From the IMG/VR virus record IMGVR_UViG_2711768007_000014: 6,669 nucleotides of DNA; one strand, written 5' to 3'. Numbering within the stretch: position 1 is the first letter of the stretch; each line of letters opens with the position of its first letter. The translations under genes and the position numbers were made by a program. The notes under the pieces are model-generated. The model did not search any database. It saw only the letters and a program-made list of their open reading frames with translations, and was not told the DNA's origin. This DNA is from a virus. Lineage: Duplodnaviria; Heunggongvirae; Uroviricota; Caudoviricetes. This document shows positions 1 to 6,669 of the stretch, piece after piece.

Positions 1-152
1 AATACGGGAATACATTGAGATTTTCTACAATCGTCAGCGTCGTCACTCTCGTCTGGGGAATATCTCCCCGGCAGCCTTCAGGGAAAAATATCATCAGATG
101 GCTGCTTAAAAAAAGAACAAATGGTAGTGTCCGCTATTGCCAGTACACCTCA
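1..152 (+). mobile_element. Right-end fragment of an IS3-family insertion sequence (3' end of transposase gene plus terminal sequence ending ...CA at 152); cut by the window edge
   Basis: Positions 1-152 are a perfect reverse complement of 6518-6669 (verified base by base; identity breaks at 153/6515). The region encodes a transposase C-terminus with the IS3-family signature. The element terminus reads ...CCTCA, i.e. the complementary end would begin TGAGG..., consistent with IS3-family TG...CA termini. Exact IS name not recognised. Confidence 0.75.
2..109 (+). CDS. IS3-family transposase (OrfB/integrase-core) C-terminal 35 codons, 5'-truncated by window edge
   Basis: Frame 2 translates to IREYIEIFYNRQRRHSRLGNISPAAFREKYHQMAA followed by TAA at 107-109. 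The FYNxxRxHSxLGxxSPxxF motif is the conserved C-terminal tail of IS3-family DDE transposases. Confidence 0.75.
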   Translation: MREYIEIFYNRQRRHSRLGNISPAAFREKYHQMAA

Positions 153-596: not shown

Positions 597-673
597 TGGC
601 GCGTTGTACTGGATTCGAACCAGTGACCGATTGCTTAGAAGGCAATTGCTCTGTCCGGCTGAGCTAACAACGC
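597..673 (-). tRNA. tRNA-Arg, anticodon UCU (reads AGA/AGG); argO-like phage tRNA
   Basis: Minus-strand sequence GCGTTGTTAGCTCAGCCGGACAGAGCAATTGCCTTCTAAGCAATCGGTCACTGGTTCGAATCCAGTACAACGCGCCA folds as a cloverleaf: 7-bp acceptor stem, GCTC/GAGC D-stem, anticodon stem ATTGC/GCAAT, loop CUUCUAA (anticodon UCU), T-arm ACTGG-TTCGAAT-CCAGT, encoded CCA. Confidence 0.85.
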
Positions 674-686
674 ATGATGCAGATAA

Positions 687-763
687 TGGACCGCCATCGG
701 GGACTTGAACCCCGCGCAGCCAGCTTCGAAGGCTGGCGCTCTTTCCTGATGAGCTAATGGCGG
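687..763 (-). tRNA. tRNA-Arg, anticodon read as UCG (reads CGA/CGG); argN-like phage tRNA
   Basis: Minus-strand sequence CCGCCATTAGCTCATCAGGAAAGAGCGCCAGCCTTCGAAGCTGGCTGCGCGGGGTTCAAGTCCCCGATGGCGGTCCA. Acceptor stem CCGCCAT/ATGGCGG, anticodon stem CCAGC/GCTGG, loop CUUCGAA (anticodon UCG), T-arm CGGGG-TTCAAGT-CCCCG, encoded CCA. D-loop is atypical (ATCAGGAAA). Confidence 0.75.
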
Positions 764-770
764 TATGTGA

Positions 771-846
771 TGGTGGCCCTTGCTGGATTTGAACCAGCGA
801 CCTGGCGATTATGAGTCGCTCGCTCTCACCACTGAGCTAAAGGGCC
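771..846 (-). tRNA. tRNA-Ile2 type (anticodon CAU, probably lysidine-modified to read AUA); ileZ/ileX-like
   Basis: Minus-strand sequence GGCCCTTTAGCTCAGTGGTGAGAGCGAGCGACTCATAATCGCCAGGTCGCTGGTTCAAATCCAGCAAGGGCCACCA. Near-identical in architecture to E. coli ileX as I recall it; anticodon loop CUCAUAA; encoded CCA. Could formally be an elongator tRNA-Met. Confidence 0.85.
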
Positions 847-886: not shown

Positions 887-1945
887 TCATCCGTTCTGGC
901 TGACTAAATCCTGTACTTCCCGAACCGTCTGCTCAAAACGTTCAGTCTCCAGCTCAACGCCAATTGCACGACGCCCGAGCGCCAGTGCCGCTTTCACTGT
1001 CGAACCCAACCCCATGAAAAAATCTGCAATCAGGTCACCCGGACGACTGCTAGCGCTGATTATCTGCTGCAGCATTTCTGCCGGTTTTTCGCACGGATGT
1101 TTCCCGGGATAGAACTGCACCGGTTTATGCGTCCACACATCGGTATACGGCACCTGCACCGTCACGCCAAAATACCGCCGCAGATGTTTATATTCACTCA
1201 GCAGCTCCGCATACTGCCGGTTCAGTGAGGTATACGTATCCACCAGCTGGTGGTGGAGCTTTTCCAGTTCACCACGCCGATGCTTCTCTTCTGCCACCCG
1301 GGCAAACAGCGCCTGTAATTTCAGATAATCGCTTTCATTCGGCAACTGCCACTGACCGGCACTGAACCAGTGCGACACCATGTTTTTCTTTCCTGTGGCA
1401 TCTGCAATCTGTTTTGCCGTTATCCCCAGGGCAGCTCGCGCATCACGAAAGTAAGAAATCAGCGGGGCCATCACATGCTGTTTCAGTGCACTGCCCTTCG
1501 CCGCATACCCGGCATCTTTCGGACGATACGGCCCCTGATAATGTTCCGCGAACAGAATGCGCTCTGTGGCGGGGAAATACGCCCGCAGGCTTTCCTTGTT
1601 GCATCCGTTCCAGCGTCCGGACGGCTTCGCCCAGATAATATGGTTCAGCACACTGAAGCGTTCACGCATCATGATTTCGATATCAGATGCCAGGCGATGA
1701 CCACAGAACAGGTAAAGACTTCCGGCAGGTTTCAGCACCCGCCAGAACTGCGCCAGACACTGGTCCAGCCACTTCAGGTAATCATCGTCGCCCTTCCACT
1801 GGTTATCCCAGCCCTCAGGCTTCACTTTAAAGTACGGCGGGTCCGTGACTATCAGGTCAACAGAATTTTCGGGTAACGACCGGATAAATTCCAGGCAGTC
1901 GGCGTTGATTAACTCACAACTGGATATTTTTACAGTATTAAGCAT
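887..1945 (-). CDS. DNA methyltransferase, N6-adenine/N4-cytosine beta-class (DPPY catalytic motif N-terminal, FxGxG AdoMet motif C-terminal); orphan
   Basis: 352-aa ORF. Motif IV DLIVTDPPYF near the N-terminus and motif I DFFMGLGST near the C-terminus give the circular-permuted beta-class order. No restriction endonuclease candidate in the window. Confidence 0.9.
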   Translation of the reverse strand: MLNTVKISSCELINADCLEFIRSLPENSVDLIVTDPPYFKVKPEGWDNQWKGDDDYLKWLDQCLAQFWRVLKPAGSLYLFCGHRLASDIEIMMRERFSVLNHIIWAKPSGRWNGCNKESLRAYFPATERILFAEHYQGPYRPKDAGYAAKGSALKQHVMAPLISYFRDARAALGITAKQIADATGKKNMVSHWFSAGQWQLPNESDYLKLQALFARVAEEKHRRGELEKLHHQLVDTYTSLNRQYAELLSEYKHLRRYFGVTVQVPYTDVWTHKPVQFYPGKHPCEKPAEMLQQIISASSRPGDLIADFFMGLGSTVKAALALGRRAIGVELETERFEQTVREVQDLVSQNG

Positions 1946-2037
1946 GGATCATTAAGCCTGTCTCTGATAGGCTCATTCTGCTTTTGCGCAAAGCAGTGGG
2001 CCTGAGGTTTGCTTGTGAACCCAACGCATGAGCAGAT

Positions 2038-2068
2038 GGCTGGTGGGTGCCCCTAACACCCACCAGCC
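2038..2068. repeat. Perfect 12-bp inverted repeat (GGCTGGTGGGTG ... CACCCACCAGCC) with a 7-nt loop, in the 5' leader of the methyltransferase gene
   Basis: Arms at 2038-2049 and 2057-2068 are exact reverse complements. No adjacent U-run on either strand, so it is not a canonical intrinsic terminator. A second palindrome (CTGCTTT-TGCGC-AAAGCAG) lies at 1978-1996, about 35 nt upstream of the methylase start. Confidence 0.5.
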
Positions 2069-2080
2069 GCCCATTTACCA

Positions 2081-2109
2081 CAAATAAAAAAGCCTTCACT
2101 GCGGAAGGC
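2081..2109 (-). terminator. Rho-independent terminator overlapping the stop codon of the small HTH ORF
   Basis: On the minus strand: stem GCCUUC/GAAGGC with loop CGCAGU, followed by UUUUUUAUUU (plus-strand A-run 2083-2090). Confidence 0.5.
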
Positions 2110-2293
2110 GTCTGTAACAACCGAACTGATAGTCTGCCAGACCCGCCATAACCAGCTGGGTCAGTATTAACTGGCAGCGTTCGCGTGAAAGGTAAGTATT
2201 CTGCGCTATCTCCCCGACTGTCGCCGGTTCGGTAACGCTTAATTCATTAAACACCACTCTGGCGGTTTCTGTCATATCCTGCTGTTTTAGCAT
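2096..2293 (-). CDS. Small hypothetical protein (65 aa) with helix-turn-helix-like segment
   Basis: ORF with AGGA-type ribosome binding site upstream. The segment ATVGEIAQNTYLSRERCQLILTQLVMAGL resembles a winged-helix/HTH recognition region. Not hydrophobic, so not a holin. No family recognised. Confidence 0.45.
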   Translation of the reverse strand: MLKQQDMTETARVVFNELSVTEPATVGEIAQNTYLSRERCQLILTQLVMAGLADYQFGCYRRLPQ

Positions 2294-2410
2294 GTCTTTT
2301 CCTTTTCCGGTTAACGTGACACACCAATAACTCTTGTCGAAAAAGCCAGCAAGCTGAAAGACAGGTATTCACCGCCACCAGCGCGTTTACTGTACTGACG
2401 CGATTTCAGT

Positions 2411-2437
2411 CATAAAAAACCCGCTCGGCGGCGGGTT
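2411..2437 (-). terminator. tR'-like intrinsic terminator about 80 nt downstream of the Q stop codon
   Basis: On the minus strand: stem ACCCGC/GCGGGU with a 6-nt loop, followed by UUUUUUAU (plus-strand A-run 2414-2419). Position relative to Q and the promoter below matches the lambdoid pR'-qut-tR' layout. Confidence 0.6.
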
Positions 2438-2484
2438 GTAGAAACTCTTCTAACGTCAGGCATAAAACGCCCATCGTTATAACG

Positions 2485-2512
2485 AATTTACCACAGATTC
2501 CGGAAAAATCAA
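2485..2512 (-). promoter_or_regulatory. pR'-like late promoter (-35 TTGATT, 16-bp spacer, -10 TAAATT preceded by TGG) starting 6 nt after the Q stop codon
   Basis: Sequence match to sigma-70 consensus on the minus strand (-35 at 2507-2512, -10 at 2485-2490). A short leader of roughly 65 nt would run to the terminator at 2411-2437, as expected for a Q-modified late promoter. Not experimentally verifiable from sequence. Confidence 0.5.
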
Positions 2513-2517
2513 CCTTG

Positions 2518-3339
2518 TTACCTAGTTACCTTTTTTAACTGCCGCTCAGCCCATGCTTCTTCAATATCAAACCGGGTCACCAGCGCATCATAAAATTTCT
2601 TAACTGTTTTTTCCCATGACGCGCGTGTTATCTGGTTTGTCACCTCGCATATAGCATTAAATGCCTCCGTTGATGGTAGTCTTTCATAGCCACGACCACC
2701 ACAACGCTGGCAGTCTCTGATAACAGGCATACCACGTTTTACCGACTCTTCACGATGAATGGCGACACCACGCCCACGGCAATCCTTACAGGCGGTGGAA
2801 ACCTCACCCTTTCCGCCACACTCCGGACAGGCAACTTTTACCACCTCCCTGACTTTTTTCCATTCTTCCCAGTAAGACGGATACACACCTTTCGTACACT
2901 TTGCCCATACCGGCGGCTTACCATCCGGATACTGGATCTTGTTTGTAAAAACCTCGCTTTCAATAAATTTTTTTCCGTGACAGCAGGGGCACTGTTTTTT
3001 GCTCGCCGCGCTACGGGCATAATCTTCAAACGCATACGAAGCCATAATACGCATCACTGCCGGTTTTATTTCTGCCGGGAGTTTTCTTAACGCCGCCACG
3101 CGATCACACCGACTGAGTGCATATTCTGTCAGCAATTCTGTTGCCCGCTCTCTGTCATTCATACTAATGCCCATTTTCCCAAGGAACGCAGAAACCCCCA
3201 TCTCAGCCCGATTCTGTGTCATGCCCTGCGCGGCCATCACATCAGTGATACTCAGCGCATCTTTCGACGTTGAGGCCGATGCATCAGTCAGGCCGGGGGA
3301 TTTTGGGGAGTAGTATTTCGGTAAATCTTCCAGTTTCAT
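2518..3339 (-). CDS. Q-like late-gene antitermination protein with four CxxCxGxG zinc-finger repeats
   Basis: 273-aa ORF immediately downstream of rusA (ATGA overlap) and immediately upstream of the pR'/tR'-like signals. N-terminus MKLEDLPKYYSPKSP resembles the Qin-prophage Q homologue (QuuQ) as I recall it. Contains CPCCHGKK, CPECGGKG, CKDCRGRG and CQRCGGRG repeats. Confidence 0.7.
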   Translation of the reverse strand: MKLEDLPKYYSPKSPGLTDASASTSKDALSITDVMAAQGMTQNRAEMGVSAFLGKMGISMNDRERATELLTEYALSRCDRVAALRKLPAEIKPAVMRIMASYAFEDYARSAASKKQCPCCHGKKFIESEVFTNKIQYPDGKPPVWAKCTKGVYPSYWEEWKKVREVVKVACPECGGKGEVSTACKDCRGRGVAIHREESVKRGMPVIRDCQRCGGRGYERLPSTEAFNAICEVTNQITRASWEKTVKKFYDALVTRFDIEEAWAERQLKKVTR

Positions 3340-3716: not shown

Positions 3717-4775
3717 TTATGCTTTCCACTTCAGAACACCCGAATTTCTCGCGTGCATTAAAAAACGAATCAGCAACAACAGCTGACTGCCGTGTTTCTC
3801 TTCAAAATCTTTTACTCCGGCATGTAGTTCGTTACGGCATTTACGGCATAACGGAATAACAAACAAATCATCAGCCTTTGTTCCCATCCCTCCCAGTCCA
3901 TGACCAATGATGTGATGCGGATCATCTGCCTGATTGCCACACGTCATGCATTTCTGCGTTTTTACCCAGCGCGTGTATACAGGCATCTCTTCCCGTTGTG
4001 ATTTCTGGCGCTGGAGATACTGAGCCGGTGACTCCGGATCAACGGCAATGCTGACCACCGTCTTTTCCTGTGGTGGGTTCTGTTGCTGGTGGACGTGAGG
4101 CAGTAACGCAATATTTTTTGTGCGCTGCTTCAGTATGCTGGTGGCTGTCTGCTCTCCCGGTATGATGTCGCTTTCACTGTACACAGAGCGAATTTTTTCC
4201 GCACGCAACCCCAGCGAACGACGTAATACCGCTTCCGGTAGCGCGTCCGCCACCTGATTGCGGACCGCCCACCAGGATAATTCAGCCAGAGATAATTCAC
4301 GCTCCTGCGTACCGCTTATTGCGTGACCGATGACGTCAATCATCCATGCTGACAGGTTTTGATGAGCAAGTTGCTCGAGTGATTCGGATGTCTGGTCACG
4401 CAGCTGGTTGTCGCAGTGCCAGCACAACACCATTGCGCCGGTACCATAACGGTGAATGACGGTTTCGCTGTGATGATAATCGCCGTGTGGCCACTGGCAG
4501 GATTTAATATGGCGCAACAGCCAGTCAGACAATGCACCAGCACCACCAGCAGCACGAATCACCCGTGCGTTACTGAAAAACGGCAGCAATGTTTTGTCTT
4601 CCACCAGCGGCTGGCGAGCGGCAGGAACGACCCCGGACGGCAGATTACGCATGCTTTTTGGTTCCGGCTCCACCAGTATTCTGCCGTTATGGAATGCTGA
4701 CATTGATTCACGGCCTGGCTTAACGATAACCAGACCGAGTTCCGGTACCAGAACAGGTCGAAGTAATACCCGCAC
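3717..4775 (-). CDS. DUF968-type prophage protein (YdfU-like) with C-terminal HNH-like Cys/His motif; putative nuclease
   Basis: 352-aa ORF starting at GTG 4775 (an internal ATG at the MSAFHNGRIL residue is an alternative start). C-terminus has C-x2-C ... HH ... C-x2-C ... H spacing (CMTCGN...DPHHIIGH...CRKCRNELH). Position between the nin small genes and rusA matches ydfU in the Qin prophage. Stop abuts the rusA ATG. Confidence 0.6.
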   Translation of the reverse strand: MRVLLRPVLVPELGLVIVKPGRESMSAFHNGRILVEPEPKSMRNLPSGVVPAARQPLVEDKTLLPFFSNARVIRAAGGAGALSDWLLRHIKSCQWPHGDYHHSETVIHRYGTGAMVLCWHCDNQLRDQTSESLEQLAHQNLSAWMIDVIGHAISGTQERELSLAELSWWAVRNQVADALPEAVLRRSLGLRAEKIRSVYSESDIIPGEQTATSILKQRTKNIALLPHVHQQQNPPQEKTVVSIAVDPESPAQYLQRQKSQREEMPVYTRWVKTQKCMTCGNQADDPHHIIGHGLGGMGTKADDLFVIPLCRKCRNELHAGVKDFEEKHGSQLLLLIRFLMHARNSGVLKWKA

Positions 4776-4776
4776 A

Positions 4777-5132
4777 TTACCTCCAGATCCGTTGCTGGAA
4801 TGTGCGGGACGGACGCGTTGGCCGTTCGGAGTAAGGGAGCCTGACGGAGATTATCCAGTGACGGTAGTCGAGGCTAAGGGCTTTTTTAACCTCGCATCCG
4901 CGCCTGCGGTAACACTGAATGAGCCATTCGGCCTGTTCTTCAGTGCATGGGGGATGCTGGTACCAATCAGATTTAAATGCGTGAGAGCGCCGCCCGTGCC
5001 TGCTGGCAAAGACGGCTGAATTATCAGAATTGTGTAGTCTGGAAGGCAGTGGCTGACAATAGCGCCATTCTCAACGCGCACAGTATAGAGGCCATCTTCA
5101 CTAAAAATTTCACGTAATTCTTCGATTTTCAT
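4777..5132 (-). pseudogene. Hypothetical gene apparently disrupted by a 1-nt frameshift (N-terminal part in one frame, protein-like C-terminal part in the -1 frame with no start codon)
   Basis: ATG at 5130-5132 with a good GGAAGGA ribosome binding site gives MKIEELREIFSEDGLYTVRVENGAIVSHCLPDYTILIIQ..., then decays into low-complexity sequence. The overlapping frame encodes ...HGRRSHAFKSDWYQHPPCTEEQAEWLIQCYRRRGCEVKKALSLDYRHWIISVRLPYSERP..., ending at a TAA (4777-4779) that overlaps the downstream start region. That frame has no ATG/GTG/TTG back to its upstream TGA. Confidence 0.45.
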
Positions 5133-5214
5133 CAACAGAATCCTTCCAGATAAATAGCACTCCCCTGTTCGGGGTCCATCCCTCTTCTCCCTGCGCGCTA
5201 CTTAAGTATTTTTG

Positions 5215-5244
5215 ATTCTATTCCGGCACCATCTAAAACTTCAA
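5215..5244 (-). promoter_or_regulatory. Candidate sigma-70 promoter (-35 TTGAAG, 18-bp spacer, -10 TAGAAT) upstream of the frameshifted gene/DUF968/rusA/Q operon
   Basis: Consensus-like hexamers on the minus strand between the hok terminator and the next ribosome binding site. Sequence match only. Confidence 0.25.
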
Positions 5245-5249
5245 ACGCG

Positions 5250-5283
5250 TTGAAAATAAAAACAAAAACCCGCCGAAGCGGGT
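5250..5283 (-). terminator. Rho-independent terminator of the hok mRNA
   Basis: On the minus strand: stem ACCCGC/GCGGGU closed by a UUCG tetraloop, followed by UUUUGUUUUUAUUUU. Confidence 0.65.
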
Positions 5284-5352
5284 TAAGTGTGGGTGCATTG
5301 AGGATGCCTGCCCCATCAGAGGTGGCGAGGGATTTCTCCCCCGCCTGGTCTC

Positions 5353-5508
5353 TTACTCCTCAGGTTCGTAAGCTGTGAAGACAGCGACCTCCGTCTGGCC
5401 GGTTCGAATTCGTACCTCGCAGAGGTCTTTCCTCGTTACCAGTGCCGTCACTATGACGGTTAAACAGATGACGATCAGGGCGATTAACATCGCCTTTTGC
5501 TGCTTCAT
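5353..5508 (-). CDS. hokD: Hok-family type I toxin (51 aa), HokD/RelF-like
   Basis: Translation MKQQKAMLIALIVICLTVIVTALVTRKDLCEVRIRTGQTEVAVFTAYEPEE matches the Hok family (single transmembrane helix, conserved C...C and TAYE tail) and, from memory, HokD/RelF. An upstream ATG at 5565 with a GAGG ribosome binding site (mok-equivalent) is in frame with hok here, so the ORF track shows a 70-aa extended ORF 5353-5565. Confidence 0.9.
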   Translation of the reverse strand: MKQQKAMLIALIVICLTVIVTALVTRKDLCEVRIRTGQTEVAVFTAYEPEE

Positions 5509-5584
5509 AGCCTGCTTCTCCTTGCCTTTCGGCACGTAAGAGGCTAACCTAGATTTGCCGTTCATAGATTGAGCCTCAGATTAA

Positions 5585-5719: not shown

Positions 5720-5803
5720 TTATCCCCAGCGGCAAATCGAATACACCACCAGCGCCACCGCCATCGCAATTCCTACCGTTGTTAATGCTTCAGGCCAGGT
5801 CAT
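5720..5803 (-). CDS. 27-codon hydrophobic small ORF ([27 protein letters not shown]), start overlapping the stop of the upstream ORF (ATGA)
   Basis: ATG overlaps the TGA of the 114-aa ORF. Hydrophobic core [16 protein letters not shown] is compatible with a membrane-inserted peptide. Its 3' end overlaps the candidate hok promoter. Below the ORF-track size cutoff; could be fortuitous. Confidence 0.3.
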
Positions 5804-6144
5804 CGTAAAATATCCTCCACGCTTATCAGTCCGTTCCGCTCCAGATAACTCATCGCCTTATCCGGTAATTTGCAGTCTGGCTTCGCTTTCCTCAGTTGCC
5901 AGGTTAACTGCTTTACCAGCATGGTTAACTCATCGACCAGACGCTGATATCCCACTGGTTTGTATTCATGCAATTTACCGGCTGGCTCTGCTGCCAGCGA
6001 TACCAGTGCGATTTCCAGAACAGCAATATCCATCTTATATGTGCGGATGATGTCATGGTCGATTGTGCCCGGTATGCACAGTCTCTGTGCTTCAATAGTC
6101 TCCTCTGCGTGAGCTATTAACTGCTCTCTGGTAAAAGTCGTCAT
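5800..6144 (-). CDS. Hypothetical protein (114 aa), paralogous in its N-terminal half to the upstream 55-aa ORF
   Basis: ORF with start overlapping the upstream ORF stop (ATGA). Shares MTT(F/I)T(R/K)E and (E/D)(L/I)A...IAL(V/A)SL(A/E)AEP with the 55-aa ORF. No family recognised. Confidence 0.55.
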
Positions 6145-6308
6145 GCCGTAGCCCCTTCTTGATATTTTTCAAACCAGAACACAACCGGCTCTGCTTCCAG
6201 CGATGCCAGCGCAATCCGTGCCAGTTCCATTTGTTCACCACGGGTAAGCCCGTTTTCAAGCGGGTTTTTAATGAACAATTCAATACGTTCTTTGGTAATA
6301 GTGGTCAT
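6141..6308 (-). CDS. Hypothetical small protein (55 aa; [55 protein letters not shown])
   Basis: Not in the ORF track (below size cutoff); found by manual translation. Perfect Shine-Dalgarno AAGGAG 5 nt upstream of the ATG at 6308; stop overlaps the next ORF start. Paralogous to the first half of the 114-aa ORF. Confidence 0.5.
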
Positions 6309-6318
6309 GTGTTACTCC

Positions 6319-6517
6319 TTAACCCGCAGTGCTTTCAACTGATGAGGGGAACAAAATCTTTTCATCAAACCCTGCATTCATATCATGAACAGCAACACAC
6401 CAATCCATCGACGAACGATTATCAAGAGCCTCCATGATTTCATCCATGCGGCGTAGGTCATACAGGTAAATGCTTTTATCGCCAATGGTGTAAAAGCCAA
6501 TTTTTTTCGGTGATGGA
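6319..6517 (-). CDS. Hypothetical ORF whose reading frame stays open up to the IS junction; possibly the 3' portion of a gene interrupted by the IS
   Basis: The track ORF 6319-6549 begins inside IS-derived sequence. The prophage-derived part encodes ...PSPKKIGFYTIGDKSIYLYDLRRMDEIMEALDNRSSMDWCVAVHDMNAGFDEKILFPSSVESTAG. Internal Met codons could instead be the true start. No family recognised. Confidence 0.35.
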
Positions 6518-6669
6518 TGAGGTGTACTGGCAATAGCGGACACTACCATTTGTTCTTTTTTTAAGCAGCCATCTGATGATATTTTTCCCTGAAGGCTGCC
6601 GGGGAGATATTCCCCAGACGAGAGTGACGACGCTGACGATTGTAGAAAATCTCAATGTATTCCCGTATT
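6518..6669 (-). mobile_element. Second copy of the same IS3-family right end, in inverted orientation; cut by the window edge
   Basis: Exact reverse complement of 1-152. Confidence 0.75.
6561..6668 (-). CDS. IS3-family transposase C-terminal 35 codons (second, inverted copy), truncated by window edge
   Basis: Mirror image of the 2-109 partial CDS; identical translation ...IEIFYNRQRRHSRLGNISPAAFREKYHQMAA. Confidence 0.75.
   Translation of the reverse strand: MREYIEIFYNRQRRHSRLGNISPAAFREKYHQMAA

Follow-up and report, generated by a model that had tools for sequence, protein, structure and literature searches.

Why is the coding sequence between hok and the DUF968 gene of this prophage fragment divided over two reading frames, and is the second frame still translated? 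The question arises in a stretch of 6,669 nt (IMG/VR record IMGVR_UViG_2711768007_000014), hereafter the window, in which the list of open reading frames and their translations place all genes of this part on the minus strand. Frame A starts behind GGAAGGA, the strong ribosome binding site that an earlier reading of the bare letters (hereafter the sequence-only reading) had noticed, 5 to 8 nt 5′ of the start. Frame B is –1 relative to frame A and is open on the minus strand from 5070 to the TAA at 4779–4777; it contains the peptide ...SDWYQHPPCTEEQAEWLIQCYRRRGCEVKKALSLDYRHWIISVRLPYSE... quoted in that reading and, between 4975 and 4780, the peptide ...SDWYQHPPCTEEQAEWLIQCYR. As had been stated, it has no start of its own: ATG, GTG and TTG are absent between 5070 and 4777, where the frame has only a CTG at 5049 and a few ATT, ATA and ATC codons. 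Its TAA was said to overlap the start region of the next gene, and it lies one base before the GTG at 4775. Since both the frame-A ORF and the startless frame-B stretch were found, the two-frame split between hok and the DUF968 gene is real. We consider it highly probable (about 0.93) that the locus consists of two prophage genes, rem and a gene for a 92-aa protein, joined out of frame by a 250-bp deletion, and thus represents ordinary gene decay. The features on which this reading is built, and those that bear on its alternatives, are collected in Table 1.

Table 1. Features at and around the two-frame locus (positions in the window; strand left empty where none applies).
Feature	Position	Strand	Details
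IS600 end	1–152		152-nt perfect inverted repeat with 6518–6669
DUF968 (YdfU-like) gene	3717–4775	minus	GTG start, 352 aa; ORF list, annotated relatives, Pfam DUF968
Orphaned body of 92-aa phrog_1212-family gene	4777–5044	minus	codons 6–92 and TAA 4779–4777; phrog_1212 match, alignment
Out-of-frame tail of chimeric ORF	4851–5044	minus	about 63–64 codons, +1 frame of the 92-aa gene; translation
Frame-A ORF	TTG 5135 or ATG 5132 to TAA 4853–4851	minus	94 or 93 aa
A_AAA_AAG heptamer	4887–4881	minus	in phase for a –1 slip out of frame A; reads Lys-Lys in frame B
T_TTA_AAT heptamer	4977–4971	minus	in phase for a –1 slip out of frame A; reads Phe-Lys in frame B
Deletion junction ...AGCCACTGCC / TTCCAGACTAC...	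5044–5045	minus	alignments to L001, L002 and L010
5′ remnant of rem	5045–5135	minus	codons 1–30 with start TTG 5135 / ATG 5132; alignment, phrog_340
Sigma-70-like promoter candidate TTGAAG-18-TAGAAT	5215–5244	minus	5′ of rem remnant; consensus scan
Terminator-like hairpin and T-run	5267–5284	minus	end of hok transcript; consensus scan, pattern match only
mok/hok reading frame	5353–5565	minus	hok toxin CDS 5508–5353 (51 aa); ORF list, upstream neighbour
End of second, inverted IS600 copy	6518–6669		perfect inverted repeat with 1–152

Residues 1–30 of frame A match phrog_340 (Rem) at profile positions 12–41 of 85 (E = 1.3e-7); for comparison, the intact Rem protein of the related locus L001 matches the same profile at E = 4.4e-22. 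The match of the window ORF to the ~85-position profile is limited to these 30 residues, so that the N-terminal stretch called protein-like in the sequence-only reading does contain a genuine gene part, of 30 codons and not of ~40. In common with rem of the E. coli K-12 Qin prophage and its homologues in lambdoid prophages (phrog_340; PF27490), the remnant lies directly 3′ of hokD, where relatives annotate the same 156-nt CDS under this name and Pfam HOK_GEF is recorded on homologous genes; its ribosome binding site and start are those of the relatives, and its first 30 residues are near-identical to theirs. Unlike intact rem, the window keeps only 30 of about 85 residues, the rest being out-of-frame sequence of the next gene. 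At the DNA level, the remnant and the sequence 5′ of it back to the end of hok are 96.5–98.4% identical to relatives with intact rem. Promoter-like sites are weak evidence here, with 1 found by the consensus scan against 0.8 expected. The assembly collection lists Pfam PF27490:Rem for the 93-aa product in its precomputed table, and in local copies of Pfam and NCBIfam neither the two halves nor the intact parent proteins had a match. A literature search on rem, ydfU and hokD turned up nothing informative on function.

The second-frame segment, for which a protein-like character had been claimed, covers the whole phrog_1212 profile (positions 1–66 of 66, E = 6.5e-35); when 5.8 billion proteins were searched with it, 156 homologous clusters emerged, the closest of them 86% identical. 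Almost all these clusters are stand-alone “hypothetical proteins” of 90–92 aa from Escherichia and Shigella with a Met-Ala start. With the 92-aa family encoded 5′ of DUF968/ydfU in Escherichia prophages (phrog_1212; WP_032156506.1, WP_032340036.1) the window shares the whole conserved core and the stop one base ahead of the DUF968 start, a layout that is the same in L001–L003. In contrast to that family, the window copy has lost its first five codons, start ATG included, together with the ribosome binding site (a Met-Ala start with GGAGA upstream, here deleted), and it carries P81T. In the alignment A1 all nearly invariant residues are retained in the window except this one, a proline conserved in at least 90% of the sequences. 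Compared with L001, frame B has four synonymous and three non-synonymous differences, among which only P81T is a window-specific change at a conserved site. Such few differences are consistent with a coding sequence orphaned recently, by a deletion that would be young relative to the divergence of the prophage alleles; the retention of essentially all conserved residues would fit continued selection and, equally well, a recent deletion in a clonal species.

The 92-aa family is variable over its N-terminal ~30 residues. Three of the homologues of frame B (P0100, P0104 and P0112) keep the conserved C-terminal ~55–66 residues behind unrelated N-terminal segments, and the N-terminus of the family has probably been exchanged repeatedly. 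As for the structure, AlphaFold places a confidently predicted core, a small strand-helix-strand-strand unit, at residues 31–75 of the frame-B segment, within a model that is weak overall (mean pLDDT 66.6, pTM 0.44). Foldseek searches of the PDB with this model gave nothing significant (best E 0.2–3); several of the best among these nonsignificant matches are R3H/KH-like small nucleic-acid-binding folds, which may be taken as a lead only. In BFVD the sole match, at a borderline E of 6e-4, was Orf QD1 of phage N15.

How the two halves came together was seen by alignment with intact homologues, the check that the sequence-only reading had proposed. Of 5,426 complete E. coli genomes, 4,544 matched window positions 4700–5360 by megablast, and 1,782 matched both flanks; in the genomes listed, the intact layout appears as two pieces spanning about 900–910 bp, as against 661 in the window, and in intact E. 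coli relatives the flanks are 97–98% identical to it. The order in the intact relatives is hokD, a gene of 83–87 aa named either rem or hypothetical protein in the annotation, ~66–69 nt of spacer, the gene for the 92-aa hypothetical protein and the DUF968 gene. Base-level alignment shows that exactly 250 bp of this arrangement are missing from the window, with the gap between 5045 and 5044, that is, 5 nt outside the interval 5020–5040 in which the break had been sought. The missing DNA comprises codons 31 to the end of rem, the spacer with the ribosome binding site GGAGAAAGCCG ahead of the ATG of the 92-aa gene, and the first five codons of that gene (MAQNS). Since 250 = 3 × 83 + 1, the fusion is out of frame: past the junction, the rem frame reads the second gene in its +1 frame. 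Comparison with L001 and with L010 revealed no microhomology at either end of the deletion.

On these grounds, the hok–DUF968 interval of the ancestor would have held two independent small genes, rem and a gene of the phrog_1212 family, the latter set apart by the ~66–69 nt spacer and equipped with a ribosome binding site and an ATG of its own. One blunt-ended 250-bp deletion, without microhomology, would then have joined codon 30 of rem to codon 6 of the second gene. Ribosomes initiating at the rem start would synthesize 30 authentic Rem residues followed by about 63 meaningless ones, and would stop at 4851. The body of the 92-aa gene is intact as DNA and most likely untranslated and silent, because its start codon and ribosome binding site are gone, and we infer that both small genes have lost their function. 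The DUF968 gene, which keeps its own GGAGG (4784–4780) and GTG, is probably still translatable, and any coupling of its translation to the upstream gene would have been lost.

One alternative is that frame B is still reached by programmed –1 frameshifting. In this case the deletion would have made, by accident, a working –1 cassette, in which a fraction of the ribosomes coming from the rem ATG slips at T_TTA_AAT or at A_AAA_AAG, produces a Rem′-phrog_1212 fusion and reaches the TAA beside the DUF968 start. The sequence-only reading had seen no slippery heptamer; there are in fact two in the overlap, both in the correct phase for a –1 slip (Table 1), and a slip at T_TTA_AAT would resume with F-K-S-D-W, the exact beginning of the phrog_1212 profile. 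A_AAA_AAG is a classic efficient bacterial slippery site, used in dnaX and in IS3-family elements. The number of heptamers is nevertheless within chance, since 48 of them occur per 6,669 nt of the minus strand, which gives 0.67 expected in the 93 in-phase positions and a probability of about 0.15 for two or more. Folding of the sequence following the heptamers (secondary structure without pseudoknots) revealed no stimulatory hairpin by comparison with shuffled sequences, the z values being –1.62 over 91 nt and +1.34 over 51 nt behind the first heptamer and +0.53 behind the second. Moreover, both heptamers are accounted for by plain codons of frame B, the native one (Phe-Lys and Lys-Lys): A_AAA_AAG also occurs in intact relatives, in which frame A goes untranslated, and at the position of T_TTA_AAT six intact copies in the loci of five relatives read TTC AAA or TTT AAG, so that TTTAAAT differs from the relatives by a synonymous change only (TTC to TTT). 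The GAGG 5′ of the A-run would be too close to it to stimulate a –1 shift. Thus, while the locus shares with the dnaX and IS3-family orfAB frameshift sites in-phase X_XXY_YYZ heptamers, including A_AAA_AAG, it differs from them in that it has no stimulatory structure, its heptamers are explained by native-frame codons and its two-frame layout is not conserved: the diverged homologues are two separate genes, and the split is found only in near-identical loci of the S. sonnei type, i.e., in the deletion allele. The earlier opinion that programmed frameshifting is the less likely explanation therefore holds, in spite of the overlooked heptamers, and we regard such a cassette as very improbable. 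If it did operate, a Rem′-core fusion would be made, termination beside the DUF968 start would be restored and Shigella sonnei would retain some low-level expression of the orphaned gene; formally, the two in-phase heptamers do offer a route to low-level translation of frame B.

One variant of the chimeric ORF, of 118 aa (P0131) and encoded on a single 1.6-kb Logan contig, changes frame, from A to B, precisely at the A6 run (…ARLKK/ALSLDYRHWII…) and equals the product expected from a –1 slip at A_AAA_AAG. It is probably due to a homopolymer length error or to a rare variant.

Frame A could also be viewed as the functional product of the event, the 93/94-aa chimeric ORF being a new gene born from the fusion and kept by selection. 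In its favour are an uninterrupted reading frame, a promoter-like site and a ribosome binding site, besides its S. sonnei annotation as a hypothetical protein; yet it is limited to one clonal lineage, and its conservation carries no information because it is confined to one clone. Furthermore, its 63-residue tail has no family match in Pfam, NCBIfam and PHROG profile scans, its cluster includes truncated and shifted variants, and the corresponding frame is interrupted by an extra stop in the relatives L003 and L010, all of which makes this possibility even more remote than frameshifting. The same extra stop led us to reject frame A as a conserved overlapping gene. The sequence-only reading had named two findings that would undo it, a 94-aa ORF conserved as such and a second frame without homologues, and neither was encountered.

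The deletion allele was traced through several collections. The same junction is present in 14 fetched loci (L004–L009 and L012–L019), and the junction 26-mer in six IMG/VR contigs; as one piece, this 26-mer is absent from all 5,426 complete E. coli genomes. An exact junction search of the one-genome-per-species GTDB contigs gave 0 matches, a result to be expected if Shigella is represented there by an E. coli genome. The exact 93-aa product with ATG start occurs in 965 index blocks of the assembly collection and on 679 contigs with Shigella sonnei names (“Uncharacterised protein [Shigella sonnei]”, A0A8B4CJ38_SHISO, FORC11_1990); the 94-aa product with TTG start is not recorded there. Over 4700–5360 the 14 loci are identical except for one SNP at 5311, and three long-read assemblies (L015, L016 and L019) have register shifts at the 5′ (hok) end of this region, resembling upstream indels. 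Taken together with the alignments and family matches above, these comparisons demonstrate where exactly the deletion begins and ends, which two parent genes it joined, and that the allele is fixed in many assemblies; it is a fixed allele of a clonal lineage and no sequencing artefact. The original proposal, one gene broken by a single-nucleotide indel near 5020–5040 in a pseudogene or by a sequencing error, is as improbable as a new gene; the frames are indeed offset by one base with a switch point close to the guessed interval, but the alignment gap is of 250 bp and not of 1 bp (nor is there any 1–2 bp indel inside one gene), the halves are two annotated genes of two PHROG families, and an error in reads or assembly is excluded by the identical junction in 14 loci and the ORF on 679 contigs, so that what remains from it is the broken, pseudogene-like nature of the locus and the second-frame segment as a real coding remnant.

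Two of the fetched loci throw a side light on the annotation of the allele. In L012 and L013, two NCBI assemblies, the gene record for the 93-aa product has the range 6001–6356, which starts with the rem ATG, ends with the TAA of frame B and measures 356 nt; because 356 is not a multiple of three, an earlier annotation apparently treated both frames as one frameshifted gene. L012 (GCA_900160055.1, contig FUBX01000053.1) has, besides the deleted allele, an intact set of rem, 92-aa gene, DUF968 and rusA, the two lying at 1222–3253 (intact) and 6001–7797 (deleted), about 4.8 kb apart with the deleted allele downstream; the stretch around the Q-like antiterminator is duplicated, with two related prophage modules in tandem.

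The surroundings of the locus are those of a prophage in decay. The window is a lambdoid prophage fragment between two inverted IS600 copies, as in Shigella sonnei, and its order on the minus strand is small ORFs, hok, the locus with the rem remnant, DUF968, rusA, a Q-like antiterminator, a methyltransferase and tRNAs. Chromosome-scale S. sonnei assemblies have a 6.4-kb segment between two inverted IS3-family copies, near ompW; the flanking elements encode proteins of 100 aa (HTH_Tnp_1) and 272 aa (rve) in L013–L019 and are 99.6–99.7% identical to an annotated “IS3-like element IS600 family transposase.” Contigs from short reads (L004, L005 and L007–L009) end at, or just inside, the 152-nt repeats. 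Inactivating deletions are expected at the locus because it lies inside a decaying prophage remnant. Deletion and IS-mediated gene decay are a general phenomenon of Shigella genomes, and the window resembles other such cases in being an IS600-bracketed prophage remnant with an internal deletion that inactivates small genes. It differs from IS-mediated decay in that the 250-bp deletion has neither an IS nor microhomology at its ends and, as far as can be seen from these ends, its mechanism would not be IS-mediated.

Three tRNA genes (Arg-TCT, Arg-TCG and one with a CAT anticodon) lie on the minus strand at window positions 597–846, and in L011 a tRNA-Ile/Arg/Arg cluster is annotated at the corresponding place, 3′ of the DNA methyltransferase gene (887–1945); they look like the usual tRNA cluster of lambdoid or Stx-type phages. 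At the opposite side, a 29-nt direct repeat (86% identical, at 5984–6012 and 6187–6215) links the adjacent small minus-strand ORFs 5800–6144 and 6141–6308, both of which start with MTT(F/I)T(R/K)E and may be partial paralogues. The DUF968, Q-like antiterminator or methyltransferase gene is split or shortened in some of the chromosome-scale S. sonnei assemblies L014, L016, L017 and L019, DUF968 being of 270 aa in L014 and L017, which could reflect long-read homopolymer errors or further decay.

A different rearrangement is found at almost the same spot in L011 (E. coli TUM10008; 1765–4056, equivalent to window ~5350–5040), where rem breaks off after codon 25 and is listed as an incomplete pseudogene, and where genes for a 216-aa hypothetical protein and a 367-aa HTH-domain protein lie between hokD and the rem remnant. 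In L003 rem is wholly missing. The hok–DUF968 interval of lambdoid prophages thus appears to be a mosaic and a hot spot of insertion and rearrangement, in which some strains have rem and some lack it, while in others it is truncated or has been displaced by inserted genes. Within this variable interval, the two-frame locus of the window is an ordinary pseudogene remnant; its importance is mainly for annotation, new biology not being implied. The 93-aa S. sonnei “hypothetical protein” (FORC11_1990, A0A8B4CJ38_SHISO) is a chimeric deletion product that should be flagged as a rem remnant, and the downstream 268 nt deserve a flag as the startless remnant of a second gene.
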